A DNA stretch of 64,000 nt from Escherichia phage vB_EcoM_phAPEC6 (MK817115.1), one strand, 5' to 3'; positions 17,976 through 57,288 are shown, counted from the stretch's first letter. The notes: a model not told the origin generated them from the sequence alone. Made by a program: numbers and translations.

Positions 17976-18620
17976 TTATTTGTAATATTTACCTAGTACT
18001 GAATAAATTTTCAGTCTAAGTTCTGTCCAGTTTTCGATATATTCAAAACCACTATGATTCTTATACATAGTATTATGAGAACATCCCATCATAACTGATG
18101 GAATACCAAGACCCATAGCAGTTTCAATATTATTGATATAATCATCAATCATTAGTTTTACATCATATCGTGTTTGTAAATCCTCTAATGCTTCTTTCTT
18201 TGATTCATTCATTTCTATGATAATAATCTCATCAAAGCAGTTTTCACCAAATTCACGCATTAGATTTACATTTCGTAAAACTTCACCATAGCCTTTTTTA
18301 CCACATTTTGTGAGTACTACGAATTTTTCTTTATGAAAACGATCACGTAGCTCTTGTACAATATCAACTGTATTTGGTTCGACTGGCTTTAACAACCCAA
18401 ACAAATATGATTGTTGGTTGAACTGTTCAAGAATCTTTTTAACTTCAGGTTGAGGAACACCCAACCAGTCTGATAAATCATATTCTAATGGGTATGGTGT
18501 TGATGGTGTGATATTATAAGTTTGTTTTACAAACTCAGAAAGCATACCCATATGGTCCAATAGAACTTCATCACAATCAAAAACTATACAACGTGGTTTC
18601 ATTACATGTTCCCCGAACAA
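17976..18620 (-). CDS. HAD-superfamily phosphatase, 5'(3')-deoxyribonucleotidase-like
   Basis: HAD motif I FDCDEVLLD and motif IV MIDDY. Confidence 0.55.
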   Translation of the reverse strand: MFGEHVMKPRCIVFDCDEVLLDHMGMLSEFVKQTYNITPSTPYPLEYDLSDWLGVPQPEVKKILEQFNQQSYLFGLLKPVEPNTVDIVQELRDRFHKEKFVVLTKCGKKGYGEVLRNVNLMREFGENCFDEIIIIEMNESKKEALEDLQTRYDVKLMIDDYINNIETAMGLGIPSVMMGCSHNTMYKNHSGFEYIENWTELRLKIYSVLGKYYK

Positions 18621-19591
18621 ATTAGGTCAATCTCACACAGTAAAGCACTAAGATTCATTTCACGGTCTGATACTGTTGCTTGCTTAACAACTGCATCACG
18701 AATTTTAACTTTAATCTTCATCAGTGTGATTTCATCAGTACTGAACATTTCAGCATTTCTGTACAAGTAAGAGAAAAATGCATCCATCTCATCATCAGGG
18801 ATATTTTGTACAATTTGTTCACGCATTTGGCGAATGTTGCCTGCCTTTAATGCTTCAACAATTGCAGTACGATACCCTGCTGAATTTTCAATACTATCTT
18901 CAAGTTTTACTAGCTTACCATCAACAACTGAACTTTGCAATACGTTTAGTGTTTTACGGAAATCAGGATAGGAAGCATTGATGTACTTTTGAACTTGTTC
19001 AACACTATCATCACTACTCAAATCAACACCTTCTGCTAGAAGAATATTATAAATTCGAGTCATGAATTGTTCCATATCATGCTTTTCGATTGTAATAACT
19101 TGAACACGAGAAATGATAGGTTTTTGAATTTTATGTGGTTCGTTACTTGTTAAAATAAAGCGAGCATTTTCATGATAGTCTTCCATTACACGTTTCAAAC
19201 TACCTTGTGCTTTGTGGTTCATCTGCTCCATTTCTTCAAGAACAAAAATACGATATCTACCAAAACATGATAGCTTTGCTGCGGCATCGATTTTGTCACG
19301 AACAGCATCAATGCCTTCATCGGACATGTTAAGCGTGGTCACATCACTTGGATCAAGGTGTCCATTTTGAACTAGTCCATTAATTAGTACTTTGATCGCA
19401 GATGTTTTACCAGTTCCTGCTGGGCCAAAAAACCCAATATGTGGAATGTCACCAGTCTTAATCCATTCTTCCATTTTCTGGCGTAGTGCATCGTTTTTTG
19501 ATACATAATCTTCCATTGATTGTGGGCGATATTTTTCAGTCCATAGTGTGGTCATTTGTATTTCCTTATGTGTACGTGTTATAGAATCCAA
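18602..19591 (-). CDS. gp44: clamp loader large subunit (gp44/RFC-like AAA+ ATPase)
   Basis: Walker A GPAGTGKT, Walker B-like VLEEMEQ, SRC-like ISRVQ; overall pattern matches T4 gp44. Confidence 0.85.
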   Translation of the reverse strand: MDSITRTHKEIQMTTLWTEKYRPQSMEDYVSKNDALRQKMEEWIKTGDIPHIGFFGPAGTGKTSAIKVLINGLVQNGHLDPSDVTTLNMSDEGIDAVRDKIDAAAKLSCFGRYRIFVLEEMEQMNHKAQGSLKRVMEDYHENARFILTSNEPHKIQKPIISRVQVITIEKHDMEQFMTRIYNILLAEGVDLSSDDSVEQVQKYINASYPDFRKTLNVLQSSVVDGKLVKLEDSIENSAGYRTAIVEALKAGNIRQMREQIVQNIPDDEMDAFFSYLYRNAEMFSTDEITLMKIKVKIRDAVVKQATVSDREMNLSALLCEIDLICSGNM

Positions 19592-19904: not shown

Positions 19905-20231
19905 TTAACGACCAAAGGTTAGCATTTTAGTTCGTGGATCTTCATCTGAAACTAAACTAACTGCGGCTGGATAATCAACCAAGTTTAATTCAATACCATC
20001 AACTTCAATAGTTCTTGACCATCGACCATGATCAATTAAAATCCATTGACCTTCTTTAATATCAGTAATGTCTTCGCCTACAGAATAAACTTTTGCCCAG
20101 CGAGAACGAATACCTCTAATTTTACCGTCATCGTTTGTTAAAACGATACCACCTGCTGTTTTGCGTTCACCATGTTCCAGTTCAGTTACCAGTACTTTAC
20201 CTTTACATGCAGTCATTACTTTATTAGTCAT
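19905..20231 (-). CDS. gp31: GroES-like co-chaperonin (gp31-like)
   Basis: KTAGGIVLT and downstream beta-hairpin pattern typical of Cpn10/GroES. Confidence 0.75.
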   Translation of the reverse strand: MTNKVMTACKGKVLVTELEHGERKTAGGIVLTNDDGKIRGIRSRWAKVYSVGEDITDIKEGQWILIDHGRWSRTIEVDGIELNLVDYPAAVSLVSDEDPRTKMLTFGR

Positions 20232-20239
20232 TTAATATA

Positions 20240-20584
20240 TTACTCCTGATCTTTGGTTCTAGCTCGACGTGGTGCTTTCTTCTCTTCAGAAACCTCAGCT
20301 TCTTGTTCTTCGGGCTTAACTTCAAAACTCTCATCATCCCATACTTCATCCGTACCATGTTCAGTACTATGAAGTTGATGTTCAGGGATATAATCAGGAA
20401 TTTGCATTTCTCGTTCTTTTTCTTGAATCAACTCTTCACGAGTTTTAATAATTGTTCCACCGGAACCGATTTTATCACCACGTGCGTTTAGATTAGCATT
20501 ACCCAATGCTACCTGATGTTGATTTTGGTACTTGAGCATATCCATGTCAATTGTTGTACCACGATAAGTTGTATGTTTAGACAT
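20240..20584 (-). CDS. hypothetical protein with acidic C-terminus (114 aa)
   Basis: ORF only. Confidence 0.35.
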   Translation of the reverse strand: MSKHTTYRGTTIDMDMLKYQNQHQVALGNANLNARGDKIGSGGTIIKTREELIQEKEREMQIPDYIPEHQLHSTEHGTDEVWDDESFEVKPEEQEAEVSEEKKAPRRARTKDQE

Positions 20585-20647: not shown

Positions 20648-21166
20648 CTACCATTTCAAAAATTCGTTAACATCAAGTTCGTACTTCAATGAATCTACCA
20701 TATGTAGTCCAATCAAAAACAAACAGTATGATGCAACAGAGCTTCCACGTCCTAGACCCCAAAAGATCTCATTTTCTTCCATATAATCAACAAGCCATAT
20801 CATACATCTTAGTAGCTTTGTCATATTATAATATTCATATAAATCAAGTTCATACTCAACACGTTTTCGTGCTTCATCGGATGTGCATTTTTGTAAGAAA
20901 AAGTCACGCAGATTTATATTGTCGTATACTGGATCATATCGCCACAGTTCATGATTTTTATCATGCTCAATTGTATAATCCAGCATACGTTGTTCTAAGC
21001 CAAATTTTTTACAGTTATCATTGAATTTCAACCTTTCAGGTTCATCAATTTCCTGCAATTGTAAGTACTGGATATCTGCACCGCAATTGATTGCATAAAC
21101 AACTGCGTTAAGATTACATTTCACATCACCATTGGGACTTATAAATCTGTTTCCTTGTACTTTCAT
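20648..21166 (-). CDS. DnaE (Pol III alpha)-like fragment: PHP-end to palm GRGS region (172 aa)
   Basis: C-terminal 67 aa align ungapped to E. coli DnaE around GPGRGSGAGSLVAY (GLGRGSSVASY here); N-terminal NRFISPNGD...AVVYAI resembles PHP-domain end; ORF stops just before where DnaE has PDFDVDF. Confidence 0.5.
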   Translation of the reverse strand: MKVQGNRFISPNGDVKCNLNAVVYAINCGADIQYLQLQEIDEPERLKFNDNCKKFGLEQRMLDYTIEHDKNHELWRYDPVYDNINLRDFFLQKCTSDEARKRVEYELDLYEYYNMTKLLRCMIWLVDYMEENEIFWGLGRGSSVASYCLFLIGLHMVDSLKYELDVNEFLKW

Positions 21167-21438: not shown

Positions 21439-23859
21439 TTAACCTCCTATGTTATTGTTTTGCAATGTAATCAAAAATGTATCTGAAACATAATTCACTG
21501 ATTCATGCGAAAAGTATCCGAATTCAACCGATGTGATTTCGAACTCTACACCTACCATTGTACCATGTTCATTGTTCTGAAGTAAAGTGTTGAAAAATGC
21601 TTCACCTTTCCCTGGTTGACAATATGCAACTGGAATGATAGGCATGAATTTTTTCTGTATACCATCTTCAATGTATGGGTGATTCATAAATCTTGGAACC
21701 GTATCAAGCATTTCATCACTGATACTTGGTATCGCATCAACGTATAGACCACGATTTTGTAAATCGGTTGGGTCTTTTACTAAGTTGGTTGTGTCTTCAC
21801 CAATAGCCTGAAAAATATTTTGTCGTAAACCAAATAATTCACCAAGCTGACCGTTGTCGATTTGAGTATATTGACGTGGATTTTTGGATACAGATACTAA
21901 AGATCCTTCAGGTAAAACCTCTCTATATAATAGATCATATTGTAAGTTACCTTGATTGTCAAGTGCTGATATTATTTTATAATTACCCATTACCATTTTA
22001 AATTTTCCATTTGGAATAGTAGTTCCATTTGGGTTAATTATACTATTTCTCAATACTTTCTTGATATCAGAAAGGTTAGTATATGGATACGTTTGACTTA
22101 GGAAGTTTTCTTTCAATAACATCTTCGGTATTTTCTGAAGACCATATCTATTGTCAGATTGTCGGAAAAATAGTTGATTAGTGAATGATGAAGTACTGAT
22201 ACATTTAAACCATTCTCTCTCAAATGCAACCGAAGGTAATACATGTGCACTCAAATAATTCTGTCCGAATCCTCTTACAATCTTAAGGTTAAATATTTTT
22301 CTTGCTTCACCACCTTCAGTACTAAATGCTTTAACATAAAACGATAATTTAATATCATCATTTTCACTAAAATCAATACTTTTGGCATATGCAGTTCCTA
22401 CAAGATATCCATCTGGTGTCAAATCTATCCCATACTTTCTAATGTCATCACCACCATCTAAAACATACGAAACTTGATTAGAGCTATCAGTTTCAATTTT
22501 AGGATATATACTGTCTCCAAAATATTCACCAACATGTATGGTTCCTAAATCACTATCAGTAATAAAGTTTATATTATTACCTTCTTCTGCGTTTATCAAA
22601 ACCCTGAACATTTTTTGCATACCAATGATATTATCACCAAGAGTAGAGTCATAATATCCTAAATCAATCCAATCACTACTATCATAAACGGGCTTAATTG
22701 TTCCATTATCGTATTCACCACTAATTACGTATGGATACACAACATTATCTTTTAATTGATATAAATGATTGGGTAGTGGTTTTTCTGAAATAGAATATAT
22801 AGTATCTATGTCTTCAGGACAAACCCACATTTGATATGCTTTATATCGTTGATTGATAGCAAACCTTTCACTTTCTTCGGTGTATGTACTTAATATATCA
22901 ACAATCTCAACTTTAAAATATGCATCACAAGCATCTGAGTCATATAAAAATGTTTGCAATAATTGCCCATTTGGGTTGAACACCATTCCAGTGTCAATTA
23001 AATTACCATTTCTATTTTGAATATTAACTTTTACTTCTTTGTTTATACCAGAAATAGGCCATGTTGATTGTGCTGGCTTGAATACTGCGAAATCATTCGT
23101 AATATGTTTATCTGGAACTTCAGAAATATCCATGTCAATCAAACGATATGCTGGAAAAAAGACACGAGGTGTAATATCAGTAGTCATGTCAGTACCCAAA
23201 ATGAAAGGTCGTCTTCTTCCAAATCCTTGAACGAACAATGTACTGTTGGAGCCATACTCAACATCACCAATACAATAAAGCTTTTTGTCATCACCAATCT
23301 CAACTCCAGGTGTAACCCAAACTTCTTGACTATCATATGTTATTGATGTATCAGTTAATCCTAGAACACCACTTGGTGAAATATTTCCAAAATACATAAC
23401 ATTTACTGCTTGTAAATAAAAATTTATAATTTCTGTATTATTATAGGTTCCATCATTTTTACAATGAATTTTTATAAAATAAACATCTTCACTATTAGTA
23501 CTTGCAGATAAGTTAAATTCATTTTTGCTGATTTTACACTTATGCTTACCATTTACTAATTTATTACCAGTTGTACCATCTGAAATAGGAACAAAAGTAT
23601 TTTCGTCATTACCAACATAAAAAGTATAATGTGGTTCTGGATCAAATACAGCACCTGAACTATCCAAGCATTGTATGTTAAGAATCATTTCTAAGTATTC
23701 ATCTTCATTTAATACATAGCTATCATCCGTTGTGCTTTCTTTATTGATACTCAAACGCACAAGAATGTCTTGTCCTTCTTGTATATATCGAGCATCGGCT
23801 TTTATATCCCATCGTGGGGTAAAAGTTGTCATTATAATTCTCCATAGCCAAGCTGCCAT
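21439..23859 (-). CDS. large protein (806 aa), possibly late/virion-associated
   Basis: Long ORF preceded by TATAAATA late-promoter-like motif; no enzymatic motif recognised. Confidence 0.5.
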   Translation of the reverse strand: MAAWLWRIIMTTFTPRWDIKADARYIQEGQDILVRLSINKESTTDDSYVLNEDEYLEMILNIQCLDSSGAVFDPEPHYTFYVGNDENTFVPISDGTTGNKLVNGKHKCKISKNEFNLSASTNSEDVYFIKIHCKNDGTYNNTEIINFYLQAVNVMYFGNISPSGVLGLTDTSITYDSQEVWVTPGVEIGDDKKLYCIGDVEYGSNSTLFVQGFGRRRPFILGTDMTTDITPRVFFPAYRLIDMDISEVPDKHITNDFAVFKPAQSTWPISGINKEVKVNIQNRNGNLIDTGMVFNPNGQLLQTFLYDSDACDAYFKVEIVDILSTYTEESERFAINQRYKAYQMWVCPEDIDTIYSISEKPLPNHLYQLKDNVVYPYVISGEYDNGTIKPVYDSSDWIDLGYYDSTLGDNIIGMQKMFRVLINAEEGNNINFITDSDLGTIHVGEYFGDSIYPKIETDSSNQVSYVLDGGDDIRKYGIDLTPDGYLVGTAYAKSIDFSENDDIKLSFYVKAFSTEGGEARKIFNLKIVRGFGQNYLSAHVLPSVAFEREWFKCISTSSFTNQLFFRQSDNRYGLQKIPKMLLKENFLSQTYPYTNLSDIKKVLRNSIINPNGTTIPNGKFKMVMGNYKIISALDNQGNLQYDLLYREVLPEGSLVSVSKNPRQYTQIDNGQLGELFGLRQNIFQAIGEDTTNLVKDPTDLQNRGLYVDAIPSISDEMLDTVPRFMNHPYIEDGIQKKFMPIIPVAYCQPGKGEAFFNTLLQNNEHGTMVGVEFEITSVEFGYFSHESVNYVSDTFLITLQNNNIGG

Positions 23860-23870
23860 TATCTATAGAT

Positions 23871-23878
23871 TATTTATA
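23871..23878 (-). promoter_or_regulatory. T4-late-type promoter motif TATAAATA
   Basis: Exact TATAAATA on minus strand about 12 nt upstream of the 806-aa ORF start. Confidence 0.4.
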
Positions 23879-50120: not shown

Positions 50121-51164
50121 TCATCTACGTATCAAAATTTTAGGTACTGTTAGGAAAGGGTCATACACTTTTCGGACAGCAGCATAGTCATATGGTACTG
50201 GAACAATTTTGGGATGAATAGCAACCACCAAACGTAACCACATATAATTTCCTTTAAAATTAAATGCTTGTATTCCGTCAAGTTCTTTTGGAAAACCTTC
50301 TGAATCAATTCCATTTTCAATATAATCCTTTCCATCTAATTTAATAATAAACCATTTATAGTTTTCATTATCATTAGGTACGTTGTTACACAAGCACCCT
50401 TGTAGCTGTATTCTACCAATAAATTTATCAAAATAGATTGCAATACTACTTAATCCTTCTACTAATCCAAACTGCATTTGTGCTGGTAGTGGAGTTGATG
50501 CGAGAATATCATATTCACCAATCATACCATTTCCAATTGGTTCATGATATAAACGCTTTATAGTTGTCCATGCTGGATTTTTATTAACTGATATTTCAGT
50601 ACTGGGGACAAATACAGGTGCTGCTTGGTCTGAAATTATTAGCTCTGCTGATGCCTCAAAGTTCATCCCTGTGTATAGATATTGTGTTGGTTCTATAAGT
50701 GAACCATCCATTGTTACTTTAGTAATGCTCCATCTATATTTTGAACCAGGACTGGTATCTTGAATAACTCCTGCTGGAACAATACATCCATAATATACTT
50801 TCTTTTTATTTCCTAATGTTTGTCTTGCTTGTCCACTTTCTGATAACCAACTGGGTTCTTGTTTTTCTAATACAACATCAAATAGTTTAGTATTATTTCG
50901 TGCATCAAAAATCATAAATGTAAGATATTCATTATCTTTCAATAAAGTATATTTTCCATCAGCGTTGTGAACAGTAAAAGATAAATTATTATTTGCCCCT
51001 CTATATATAGTTAGTTTTTCATTGCTATATGGCATATTAAAATTGCCCAATGATACTTCCTGATTATAAGGGTACATAAACACGCCGTGATGAGCCATAG
51101 TTTTTCCTTCCATAAATAATAGGTATAAATTTATACTAATATTTATGGAACTAATATGAATCAA
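50121..51164 (-). CDS. hypothetical protein (347 aa; true start may be internal Met)
   Basis: ORF; N-terminal extension overlaps the divergent plus-strand ORF. Confidence 0.4.
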   Translation of the reverse strand: MIHISSINISINLYLLFMEGKTMAHHGVFMYPYNQEVSLGNFNMPYSNEKLTIYRGANNNLSFTVHNADGKYTLLKDNEYLTFMIFDARNNTKLFDVVLEKQEPSWLSESGQARQTLGNKKKVYYGCIVPAGVIQDTSPGSKYRWSITKVTMDGSLIEPTQYLYTGMNFEASAELIISDQAAPVFVPSTEISVNKNPAWTTIKRLYHEPIGNGMIGEYDILASTPLPAQMQFGLVEGLSSIAIYFDKFIGRIQLQGCLCNNVPNDNENYKWFIIKLDGKDYIENGIDSEGFPKELDGIQAFNFKGNYMWLRLVVAIHPKIVPVPYDYAAVRKVYDPFLTVPKILIRR

Positions 51165-51509
51165 TATAACACTATTCCACCATTCATTACTGTAATCCAG
51201 TATGATGGTAAAACGTTTGTTGGTATCATCAAAATCAAAAGCAAACAGTATACAACTCTTTACTGTTTCGATGATATGGATGATTCAATGCAAGACGAAT
51301 TGTTAGGTATAGCACACGATTGGTGGTGGCAAAGTAATAGAACCATTCCAGTTTGTCTATTCTTTCAAGAAGAGATGGAGAAATTTGAACCGTACACACA
51401 GAGATTCGATACACCGTCGGTGAATTTCGTATGTGGTCCAGTAGTTTCTTTAAGCAATTTGCCACAGAAACGCATCAAGCGTCGTAATGTGGCTCTTAAG
51501 AAGAAGTAA
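51156..51509 (+). CDS. hypothetical protein (117 aa), plus strand
   Basis: One of few plus-strand ORFs; TATAAAT about 45 nt upstream; basic C-terminus. Confidence 0.35.
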   Translation: MNQYNTIPPFITVIQYDGKTFVGIIKIKSKQYTTLYCFDDMDDSMQDELLGIAHDWWWQSNRTIPVCLFFQEEMEKFEPYTQRFDTPSVNFVCGPVVSLSNLPQKRIKRRNVALKKK

Positions 51510-52134
51510 GATGTTCAACTAAAGCATTTAGTTGTACAACAATCATTAAGCTATATGCGTAAGCATGTGGCTTTTTGAAATATCGTAATTTATTTCCTGC
51601 TTGGTCAGTGCCGATAGTACTATAATCCCATATGGTAGCTTTAACTTCGTCCCATGTGTTCATACTTTGGCACTGCCTTTTTCCTGGGCGAATCATTGCA
51701 ATAAACATTGCTAGTTCGTCTATAGATTTAGGCTTCCATATATTTAATAAAGTTACATGTTTTTTAATTTGCGATAGATGTTCTACAATTTCGGGTTCTA
51801 ACAATAGATCCCAATTTGGTTCCTGATTCATTAGTTCTTTTAAATGCTCTCTATCACGAACATACATGTAAGCTGACTGTGAAAGAATATCAACTTTTTG
51901 ATACCCTAACCTTTCAGCTTCTTTATATTGTATACTTGCCAATCCAGTGATTGGGTCAATAGGTATATTATCAAAATGAACACCACTATTATGGGGGATT
52001 AAACCATCCTCCGTAATTTTTTCAGTACTTCGCACACATGGAAGTTTAGCGATTACGCTTTTACTATCCTTGAAGTCAATGTCAATATCAGTTCGGGCTT
52101 TTCTATAATGTTTAGAATCGGTCGAATCCTGCAT
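51496..52134 (-). CDS. DnaE (Pol III alpha)-like fragment: catalytic palm/fingers core (212 aa)
   Basis: Ordered matches to DnaE motifs: DIDIDF (PDFDVDF), HNSG (HAGG), KVDIL (KFDFLGL third Asp), IRPGK (FRPGP), KKPHAYAYS (NKSHSAAYA). Confidence 0.5.
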   Translation of the reverse strand: MQDSTDSKHYRKARTDIDIDFKDSKSVIAKLPCVRSTEKITEDGLIPHNSGVHFDNIPIDPITGLASIQYKEAERLGYQKVDILSQSAYMYVRDREHLKELMNQEPNWDLLLEPEIVEHLSQIKKHVTLLNIWKPKSIDELAMFIAMIRPGKRQCQSMNTWDEVKATIWDYSTIGTDQAGNKLRYFKKPHAYAYSLMIVVQLNALVEHLTSS

Positions 52135-52441
52135 TTTTTATTTGCTCCTGTAACTGTTTAACTGTATTAGTCAAAGTTGATATTTGATTCTCTAATAATC
52201 TACAATTTTGTTTTGTCTTTGCCAATTCTTGACTTAAACTGAAAAAGCGTTCTTCGTGTCTTTCTACCAAAGAAATAATTTTTTCAATACGAGCAGGATC
52301 ATGAACTTGAAATGTTTTACCATCTAAAGTTATTTCAGTAATAGATCCTTGTCTAAGTAGAGATATTTGTTTTGATTTTTGTTCTTTAGGTACAGGTACA
52401 TACCCTTCTGGTATTTTATTATATATACTTTTTCCATTCAT
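52112..52441 (-). CDS. hypothetical protein (109 aa)
   Basis: ORF only. Confidence 0.35.
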   Translation of the reverse strand: MNGKSIYNKIPEGYVPVPKEQKSKQISLLRQGSITEITLDGKTFQVHDPARIEKIISLVERHEERFFSLSQELAKTKQNCRLLENQISTLTNTVKQLQEQIKNAGFDRF

Positions 52442-53148
52442 AATCCTGCCTCACATAGCATAATCTTAATTTCATCACAATCCTTTTTGTATTTTATAGT
52501 TTTGATTTCAAAATAACTTGGATCGATGTATTTAAGTATATATTCAATTTCTGAGTTTGATAGTTTTTTAAAAAACTTATTAGTACTTTTTTTAGGAGCA
52601 AGCCAGATAATCCAAGGTGAAATTTTACCACTCTCAATCCATGCAATTGCACGGGCAGAACTTACATTTTCAAAGAAAGTATTCCATTGTACATTCAAAT
52701 TTTCAGCCCATTCAACCAGTGAGATAACACTTCTTGCAATTGCTTCTTTTGGGTGCTCGGCACGAATTGTTTTTAATATCCATTCATCTTTTGCTTTATA
52801 TGTACTCCATTCCGTGATTGGTTTGTTATTGATAATCAAGTACTTTACAAACTCGTCCACATTAATAATATCTCTATTATTCAAATAGTATTCGGCAAAA
52901 CTATAAAAATCATTAAAGTACTTTGACTTTATAAAAGCAATAAAAGGCTCTACGCCTTTTTTAAATGGGAACTTATTCAATTCCATAAATTGCATATATA
53001 TACGAAAAGCCTCCATCATCTGGCGGCTTTGGCGGTCTTCGTATCGGTCACGTTTTATACATTTATGTGTGTTTACAGTTTCTTCACGTTTAAATTCACG
53101 ATCACAAAATCTACAGGTATATACTTTATTACTTGATTTCTTTGCCAT
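52438..53148 (-). CDS. protein with N-terminal C2H2/C2HC-like zinc finger (236 aa)
   Basis: YTCRFCDREFKREETVNTHKC. Confidence 0.4.
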   Translation of the reverse strand: MAKKSSNKVYTCRFCDREFKREETVNTHKCIKRDRYEDRQSRQMMEAFRIYMQFMELNKFPFKKGVEPFIAFIKSKYFNDFYSFAEYYLNNRDIINVDEFVKYLIINNKPITEWSTYKAKDEWILKTIRAEHPKEAIARSVISLVEWAENLNVQWNTFFENVSSARAIAWIESGKISPWIIWLAPKKSTNKFFKKLSNSEIEYILKYIDPSYFEIKTIKYKKDCDEIKIMLCEAGL

Positions 53149-56469: not shown

Positions 56470-57288
56470 TTAATTAGTTCGAGTATTATATTCGTACTCA
56501 AATGTATATACTAAATCTTTATCACAGTTAGGGTTACTTGCATCTAAAATGTCACTATTAGTAATCATCCATTCAATGTAATTCAATGGAACTGTACTCA
56601 TTGGCTCACCTTTGTGTTTACCAAATGGCATGAATTGATAACGCATTGGTGTGTTGCAGAAAGTTACAATTTGCTCACCAATATCACCATTAGGTTCGAT
56701 ATATCCACGTTCGATTGCAATTTCAACTAATTTGATTAGAACCTGATAACACATAAACACATCGTCTTTTGCTGCGTGTGCATTAACAGGTCGATGAACA
56801 TCACGATAACATCCAAACTTATACCACAAATAACTTAGAGTTAAGTTTTTAAATTCAATATCTTCTGCGAACATTTTCTTAGCAAGACGAAGGGTACAAA
56901 TCCATTTATTTTCATCAAGTAAGTACTGTGAAATTGAGTTACGATATTTATATTCGTTATCTACCATCATTCTACGGTCAAATTGTACATTATGACCAAC
57001 AAAATACTTACGGCAGCCCATAAGTGCATCAATGTTATCTAAATCATCTTTATACCCAACACAATTAGCTACATCCTCAGTACTGATAAAGTGCACAGCA
57101 GATGCCTCTGGTGGAATATCTTTCAAGGGTTTGTATCTCAATGTATAGTTATCAATAGTATCAATGTTTTCATGTGAAGTATGTGGATACGAGATACTAA
57201 ATTCAATAATATCATCTTCACTCTCAACCCCAGTAGTTTCAGTATCTAGAACTGCTACATTTGATAAAAACTCATTTAATTTTGTCAT
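56470..57288 (-). CDS. DnaQ-like DEDDh 3'-5' exonuclease
   Basis: Exo I LDTETTG, Exo II GHNVQFD, Exo III HAAKDD. Confidence 0.65.
   Translation of the reverse strand: MTKLNEFLSNVAVLDTETTGVESEDDIIEFSISYPHTSHENIDTIDNYTLRYKPLKDIPPEASAVHFISTEDVANCVGYKDDLDNIDALMGCRKYFVGHNVQFDRRMMVDNEYKYRNSISQYLLDENKWICTLRLAKKMFAEDIEFKNLTLSYLWYKFGCYRDVHRPVNAHAAKDDVFMCYQVLIKLVEIAIERGYIEPNGDIGEQIVTFCNTPMRYQFMPFGKHKGEPMSTVPLNYIEWMITNSDILDASNPNCDKDLVYTFEYEYNTRTN

Follow-up and report, generated by a model that had tools for sequence, protein, structure and literature searches.

Here, we analyzed a stretch of 64,000 nucleotides (nt) from Escherichia phage vB_EcoM_phAPEC6 (MK817115.1; this whole stretch is referred to as the window), in which two small open reading frames (ORFs) located 31 kb apart probably encode the two subunits of one minimal nucleotidyltransferase of family C (the DnaE/PolC type), which is likely to be an accessory polymerase. 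The two products, 172 and 212 amino acids (aa) in length, are designated the N piece and the C piece, respectively. Such a pair had been proposed in an earlier reading of the same DNA by a model (hereafter the sequence-only reading), and both ORFs were present as it had described them. Our interpretation draws on observed homology to DnaE, residue conservation, a constant break point, synteny and natural fusions of the two pieces. It should be noted that a split mini DNA polymerase III (Pol III) is already known as a computational prediction, as is evident from the text of a 2021 paper (Iyer et al., 2021).

The homology of the N piece to DnaE could be recognized by several methods. The Pfam family DNA_pol3_alpha (PF07733) matched residues 92–171 on profile positions 16–95 of 260, with 37.9 bits (cut-off 23.9) and E=1.9e-9. 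A profile search of PDB with 32 diverse N-piece homologues yielded nine distinct DnaE sequences only (E. coli residues 320–392), and hhalign with a 77-sequence N-piece alignment placed residues 98–172 on 320–396 of E. coli DnaE (E=6.6e-6). When the window was searched by tblastn with E. coli DnaE, the N piece was the single outstanding match (DnaE 323–392, E=0.009), with 22.9% identity over 70 ungapped residues, close to the quarter identity over 67 ungapped residues given by the sequence-only reading. The alignment includes the GLGRGSS loop, whose residues G137, G139, R140, G141, S142 and S143 are invariant in the N-piece family and in which the GS residues align with G363-S364 of DnaE. The end of the ORF is equivalent to DnaE residue ~396, with Asp401 five residues further on; the N piece indeed stops just before the catalytic motif (D401/D403), as had been noticed. 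On the other hand, the suggestion that it also aligns with the end of the PHP domain was not supported, because residues 1–97 match nothing in DnaE by hhalign and the similarity begins inside the palm; these residues represent a family-specific N-terminal region. No PHP match was obtained from Pfam for either piece. The structural model of the N piece had a predicted local distance difference test score (pLDDT) of 88.5, and DnaE/PolC ranked first in the fold search, more weakly than for the C piece.

The C piece was more difficult to place with profiles. PF07733 gave no match for the C piece alone, the Pfam fingers family PF17657 remained below its cut-off (13.6 bits, cut-off 22; E=0.043, 34 residues only), and the C-family profile had no match among PDB sequences. 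The link to DnaE needed hhalign, structure prediction and natural fusions. By hhalign, residues 72–152 were aligned with DnaE 545–642 (E=0.019), and the weak hidden Markov model matches of the C piece are colinear with DnaE. Its motifs also follow the order of DnaE: D16/D18/D20 correspond to D401/D403/D405, H48..G51 to HAGG 511–514, D82 to D555, RPG to 639–641 and FKKPHAYAY to FNKSHSAAY 756–764. Across 85 homologues, with identities as low as 40%, the motif residues show little or no variation, the invariant ones being D16, D18, D20, H48, G51, D82, R149, P150, K152, H190 and Y194. The ORF had been said to begin exactly at the catalytic motif; this needs a small correction, since DIDID (residues 16–20) is preceded by 15 residues.

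An AlphaFold model of the C piece, built with the 85-homologue alignment, reached a pLDDT of 93.9 and a predicted template-modelling score of 0.80, with strands at residues 17–21 and 80–85. In a Foldseek comparison with PDB, the first eleven matches were Pol III alpha chains, eight of which had probabilities of 0.99–1.0, and beyond these chains the probability was at most about 0.1. The fold match to DnaE/PolC spans ~190 residues of the C piece, and the predicted palm and fingers agree in fold with the solved DnaE/PolC structures. Neither a complete lack of family-C profile matches nor a non-palm structure, both of which the sequence-only reading had named as possible outcomes against itself, was found, given the Pfam match of the N piece and the single-chain models, which retrieved DnaE/PolC first. 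Judging from the aligned motifs, the elements of a Pol-beta-like active site would be complete across the two chains, with the GS loop in the N piece and D16/D18 and D82 in the C piece.

According to the alignment, the break between the two pieces falls in the loop between the helix after the GS motif and the strand bearing DxD. In the Pol-beta-like nucleotidyltransferase fold, this loop lies inside the minimal catalytic core; therefore neither chain should be active alone, and the active site should exist only in a two-chain complex. The same break point was observed in 160 diverse viral loci (80 for each piece). In all 80 N loci, the ORF stopped within a few codons of one profile position and had only 0–2 residues beyond the DnaE-homologous end, and in the 80 C loci the stop-to-stop ORF measured 189–221 aa. 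The other half was found within 10 kb in none of the 160 loci, and the two genes were never adjacent or fused there.

Compared with DnaE, both pieces are strongly reduced. They jointly cover DnaE residues ~320–785, the latter being the equivalent of the C-piece end, in 384 residues. The C piece has 27 residues in place of the thumb and adjoining palm segment (DnaE 406–510), and its fingers comprise about 130 residues instead of about 350. The PHP, thumb, clamp-binding/helix-hairpin-helix (HhH), OB and tau-binding domains are absent from both pieces. Further DnaE pieces, whose existence the sequence-only reading had raised, could be detected neither in the 64-kb window (tblastn of E. coli DnaE) nor in four conserved neighbours (profiles compared with DnaE).

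On the basis of these correspondences, we propose that the N piece would contribute the first strand, then the GxGRGSS loop that binds the triphosphate and the helix after it, and that the C piece would contribute the D16/D18 strand with the metal ligands, the D82 strand and cut-down fingers, whose RPG and KxHxxxY motifs have counterparts that line the deoxynucleoside triphosphate/template pocket in DnaE. The Pol-beta-like active site would then form only when the two chains associate. Assembly of the two pieces as a heterodimer is considered very probable, and there is a good likelihood that the pair is catalytically active.

Natural single-chain forms provide evidence that the two pieces belong together. 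Besides separate C pieces, an exhaustive C-family profile search yielded longer proteins containing both parts, which fall into two types known from five short metagenomic contigs only. The first type is represented by P0307 (375 aa) and its relatives P0390 and P0391 (376 aa, 78–81% identical), encoded in four contigs (L165–L168) from several samples. In this type, the N profile matches residues 15–182 (E ~1e-41) and the C profile residues 192–375 (E ~1e-53), and the PF07733 palm match on P0307 (59.6 bits, residues 97–207) runs unbroken across the N/C junction. The second type, P0374 (336 aa; L169:3171–4181), is a more divergent N+C fusion. When E. coli DnaE, both fusions and the two window pieces were aligned, the pieces abutted where the fusions have 4–10 linker residues and E. 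coli DnaE has 8. Since the natural fusions are colinear, they constitute classical gene-fusion evidence that the N piece and the C piece work as one enzyme. In addition, a homologue of g117, the convergent neighbour of the C piece (see below), follows the P0307-type fused genes in the same arrangement. In a rough neighbour-joining tree, whose root is unknown, both fusion types were nested among split forms, a weak indication that the fused forms are secondary fusions.

The P0374 gene overlaps the stop codon of a gene for a 552-aa PF03090 'Replicase', which suggests its use in a different, smaller replicon. Other proteins also resemble parts of the fused enzyme. P0403 and P0404 (540–551 aa), which combine a PHP domain with no more than the initial part of the Pol III alpha palm, are its distant relatives, and a similar kind of match to the N piece is seen for PHROGs 13169 and 7513 (about 460 aa). 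There may be other truncated or differently split DnaE forms in phages.

We then considered the occurrence of the two genes in related phages. The 4 kb around the finding are 99.7–99.9% identical to Escherichia/Salmonella phages of the 121Q/PBECO4 group (Asteriusvirus, ~350-kb jumbo myoviruses), and the window corresponds to ~1.4–65.4 kb of the 121Q genome, as placed by mapping both ORFs. The N piece is the orthologue of 121Q gp56, annotated as 'DNA polymerase III alpha subunit'; the C piece is the orthologue of gp16, for which RefSeq gives 'DNA polymerase' and most other records give 'hypothetical'. Both families are labelled 'DNA polymerase' in PHROGs. At 90% clustering, the C family comprises 785 members; a set of 1.84 billion proteins contained 545 of its representatives at 50% clustering, with lengths of 185–215 aa in almost every case. 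The N family occurs in >560 IMG/VR contigs. Among isolated phages, the genus counts of the two halves were equal for Escherichia (33/33), Pseudomonas (11/11), Salmonella (8/8), Erwinia (8/8), Xanthomonas (4/4) and Yersinia (4/4), and nearly so for Klebsiella (10/11). The distance between the two genes is 31–34 kb in 121Q, RaK2, GAP32, BF and CBB, and 163 kb in one 331-kb metagenomic contig. When compared with RaK2 and GAP32, the ratio of nonsynonymous to synonymous substitution rates (dN/dS) was 0.06–0.08 (N piece) and 0.10 (C piece) at saturated dS; both genes are under purifying selection.

These data bear on the idea that the two ORFs are independent DnaE remnants, either decaying or kept for separate non-catalytic roles. 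Such a view could find support in the CBB genome paper, in which the 172-aa protein was noted as a 'truncated' alpha subunit, in the location of the genes 31–163 kb apart in different operons, and in the lack of a significant Pfam match for the C piece. However, the catalytic and nucleotide-binding residues are invariant across hundreds of homologues, dN/dS is only 0.06–0.10, the boundary is the same in all 160 loci with a matched distribution of halves, and natural N+C fusions exist. Thus, a relic origin appears very unlikely, and the two-piece, miniaturized family-C enzyme envisaged by the sequence-only reading stands up well to the broader comparison.

Another alternative is that the halves are joined into one polypeptide by split inteins, trans-splicing or DNA rearrangement, for which the split-intein system of cyanobacterial dnaE-n/dnaE-c offers a precedent. 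The absence of intein signatures, already noticed from the sequence, was borne out: no Pfam intein/Hint match was obtained in either piece, and neither boundary leaves space for one. The 0–2 residues after the DnaE-homologous end of the N piece, and the ~15 before DxD in the C piece (versus 8 in E. coli), provide no room for intein halves of about 100 aa and 35 aa. Each gene has its own Shine-Dalgarno sequence as ribosome-binding site, ATG and stop codon, and the N and C genes overlap the preceding ORFs by 41 and 23 nt, respectively. Moreover, a simple deletion cannot fuse the genes in the N-to-C direction, because both genes occupy the same strand of the 121Q map, with the C gene coming first. 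On the basis of piece lengths, boundaries and gene order, inteins, trans-splicing and rearrangement were rejected as an extremely improbable explanation, and the two halves undergo no protein or RNA splicing.

The coordinates of both pieces, their motifs and the surrounding genes are listed in Table 1. The phage belongs to the T4-related jumbo myoviruses, with a family-B polymerase, an RFC-like clamp loader, UvsW and a gp23-type capsid protein (gp610, gp60, gp10 and gp603 in 121Q, respectively). The family-B polymerase, which had been suggested as something to look for elsewhere in the genome, is of the T4 gp43 type (121Q gp610, 1001 aa, with exonuclease and polymerase domains), lies outside the window and has counterparts in other phages (RaK2 gp100 and CBB_263).

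Table 1. Location of the two mini Pol III pieces, their aligned motifs and neighbouring genes in the window
Feature	Position	Strand	Basis
N piece, 172 aa, N-terminal half of mini Pol III alpha palm	20648..21166	-	Pfam, hhalign, tblastn, model
GLGRGSS loop, N-piece residues 137-143 = DnaE GPGRGSG triphosphate-binding hG[GS] motif	20738..20758	-	alignment
C piece, 212 aa, rest of palm with three acidic residues and reduced fingers	51496..52134	-	hhalign, model, motifs
DIDID, C-piece residues 16-20 = E. coli DnaE D401-F-D403-V-D405	52075..52089	-	alignment
D82 codon in KVDIL = DnaE D555 in KFDFL; putative third catalytic carboxylate	51889..51891	-	alignment
RPGK, C-piece residues 149-152 = DnaE fingers motif FRPGP 638-642	51679..51690	-	alignment
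FKKPHAYAY, C-piece residues 186-194 = DnaE fingers motif FNKSHSAAY 756-764	51553..51579	-	alignment
g117, 117-aa ORF, PHROG 11637, candidate partner	51156..51509	+	linkage
g236, 236-aa ORF, PHROG 11058, N-terminal zinc finger, candidate DNA-binding partner	52438..53148	-	linkage
g114, 114-aa ORF, PHROG 14844, directly downstream of N piece	20240..20584	-	linkage
GroES/Cpn10-like gene, after g114	19905..20231	-	gene order
gp44-type clamp loader, after GroES-like gene	18602..19591		
DnaQ/RNase T-type 3'-5' exonuclease, stand-alone, between UvsY and UvsW	56470..57288	-	Pfam E 7e-15
109-aa coiled-coil protein (121Q gp15), directly upstream of C piece	52112..52441	-	121Q annotation: virion structural
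806-aa virion protein (121Q gp54), upstream of N piece	21439..23859	-	121Q annotation

Each half resides in its own gene block, which is kept in relatives at ~40% identity. The order of the C block is UvsX(RecA)-UvsY-UvsW-g165-g236-C piece-(g117, convergent)-primase-gp41 helicase, and that of the N block is N piece-g114-GroES-like-gp44 clamp loader-two virion proteins. Of 75 distant C loci, 74 contained g117, which abutted the C gene at its 3' end or overlapped it there (by 14 nt in the window), and g236 was located upstream of the C piece in 72/75. Similarly, g114, together with the GroES/Cpn10-like gene, followed the N piece in 66 of 74 distant loci, with the clamp loader usually next. Except for the zinc finger of g236, none of these three proteins had a Pfam or PDB match. 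This finger is invariant in C12-x2-C15-x12-H28-x-C30 and matches eukaryotic C2H2 zinc fingers in PDB with E values down to 1.6e-7; the invariant residues of g114 are G9, A26, N29, N33, A34, G36 and D37. We infer from their linkage that g117, g236 and g114 are candidate partners of the mini Pol III.

The stand-alone DnaQ-like exonuclease is labelled 'DNA polymerase exonuclease subunit' in PHROGs, and its C terminus shows a short match to QSregVF_b. It might proofread for either polymerase. As a linked proofreader of the mini enzyme it was rejected, since it occurred in only 3 of 74 N loci (7–9 kb away) and in none of 75 C loci.

Several observations concern expression. The T4-type late-promoter octamer TATAAATA was found in 4 copies in the window versus 11.7 expected. 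One TATAAATA copy, at 23871–23878 (minus strand), is located between a predicted terminator (23909–23889) and the ATG (23859) of the 806-aa gene. The N piece comes third in the transcription unit of this gene; because no terminator is predicted between the two, the N piece may be expressed late. Scans for sigma-70 promoters around both genes gave counts not above those of shuffled sequence. Virion-annotated genes stand directly upstream of both halves, an odd mix in which structural and replication genes share transcription units. In PA5oct, neither the homologue of the C piece nor those of its neighbours are flagged as virion proteins. The main text of the PA5oct transcriptome paper contains no per-gene timing for these homologues.

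With regard to function, the mini enzyme may be a low-processivity, template-dependent DNA polymerase for replication-coupled gap filling, recombination or repair, possibly acting with phage-specific partners. Templated DNA synthesis, rather than some other nucleotidyl transfer, is somewhat favoured, because the finger motifs of DnaE are kept, the fold match is exclusively to family C and the neighbourhoods are those of replication and recombination: the C piece is found between UvsX/UvsY/UvsW and primase/helicase, the N piece in the clamp-loader block, and fused P0374 abuts a Replicase gene. An accessory, low-processivity role is suggested because the thumb and clamp-binding parts are missing and a gp43-type polymerase is present; we regard the chance that the pair has such a role beside gp43 as about even. 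Alternatively, the pair might be an active Pol-beta-fold nucleotidyltransferase that is not a templated polymerase; adding tails without a template, producing a nucleotide signal or primer, and modifying DNA ends (for instance in counter-defence) are conceivable activities. The loss of all of the thumb, HhH/clamp-binding and OB domains, the many non-templated transferases in the Pol-beta superfamily and the full family-B replicase already in the phage speak for this view, which we consider quite unlikely.

It is also possible, although unlikely, that the two halves serve as just the catalytic centre within a larger phage polymerase assembly, in which g236, g117 and g114 would replace the thumb, DNA-binding and clamp-binding parts. 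If so, no self-contained family-C polymerase would be smaller than the single chains of 336–376 aa, one of which may be the replicase of a small element beside a Replicase/primase gene, and the location of the halves in separately regulated modules could serve as a timing switch for activity.

Several points weigh against a two-subunit accessory polymerase. The link of the C piece to DnaE is weak by sequence alone, and the reconstituted active site is deduced from homology and natural fusions. The co-occurrence of the halves is based on genus counts and six genomes only, and the proposal does not account for why the two genes are always so far apart. Lacking thumb, HhH/clamp-binding and OB domains, the pair alone is doubtful as a stable DNA binder, and no clamp-binding motif is evident in it. 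Finally, a literature search retrieved no biochemical or experimental report on a split mini Pol III.

A comparison with known systems helps to define the two-chain mini Pol III further. According to the text of Iyer et al. (2021, Viruses 13:63, PMC7824862), group 2.2 jumbo phages have a phage-specific minimal Pol III alpha that is split in two: an N-terminal protein binds the NTP, a C-terminal protein binds Mg2+ and the template, and the two genes lie far from each other. This enzyme accompanies the family-B polymerase in T4-related jumbo phages (for example, the RaK2/121Q group) and, as these authors argued, may resemble an ancestral form of Pol III. The phAPEC6 pair is the same object with the same interpretation and no essential difference. 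Our data extend that text by the invariant break point, the two conserved modules with their linked genes, the models and fold-search scores, dN/dS and the natural fusions, some of which may stand in its figures or supplement. The split mini enzyme is not mentioned in later reviews or in a 2026 survey of bacterial polymerases.

Cellular DnaE/PolC (PDB 2HNH, 2HPI, 3F2B and 5LEW) shares with the phage pair the Pol-beta-like palm, the GS loop, DxD plus a third Asp, and the RPG and KSHxxxY fingers motifs. However, the cellular enzyme is a single chain of about 1160 aa with PHP, thumb, beta-clamp-binding/HhH, OB and tau-binding domains, whereas the phage pair has 384 aa in two chains and none of these domains. 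If active, it would be the smallest family-C polymerase by a wide margin (two chains totalling 384 aa, or one of 336–376 aa), would reveal the irreducible catalytic core of the bacterial replicase, and would imply that two subunits can form a Pol-beta-type active site at their interface. The retention of a second polymerase beside gp43 by hundreds of T4-related giant phages would point to a division of labour in replication or repair. The P0307-type and P0374 single chains contain the same halves and motifs in colinear order within one polypeptide, with P0374 differing further in that it lies beside a PF03090 Replicase gene and its element is of another kind.

Among systems in which a polymerase is divided between genes, DnaE-n and DnaE-c of Synechocystis/Nostoc, which reportedly carry naturally split inteins, resemble the phage pair in that a family-C catalytic subunit is derived from two genes far apart. 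The cyanobacterial enzyme is a full-size DnaE that is divided in its fingers region, and the intein halves ligate the parts into one chain; in the phage pair, by contrast, the break lies in the palm core, intein sequence is absent and the parts must act as a non-covalent complex. Split family-B polymerases, such as gp43A/gp43B of some T4-like Aeromonas phages and the two-gene PolB of Methanothermobacter, also provide a replicative-type polymerase from two separately translated polypeptides that reassemble. These enzymes are cut between domains of a full-size protein and are encoded by adjacent or nearly adjacent genes, whereas the phage pair belongs to family C, is miniaturized and is split within the catalytic fold, with genes that are always >10 kb apart.
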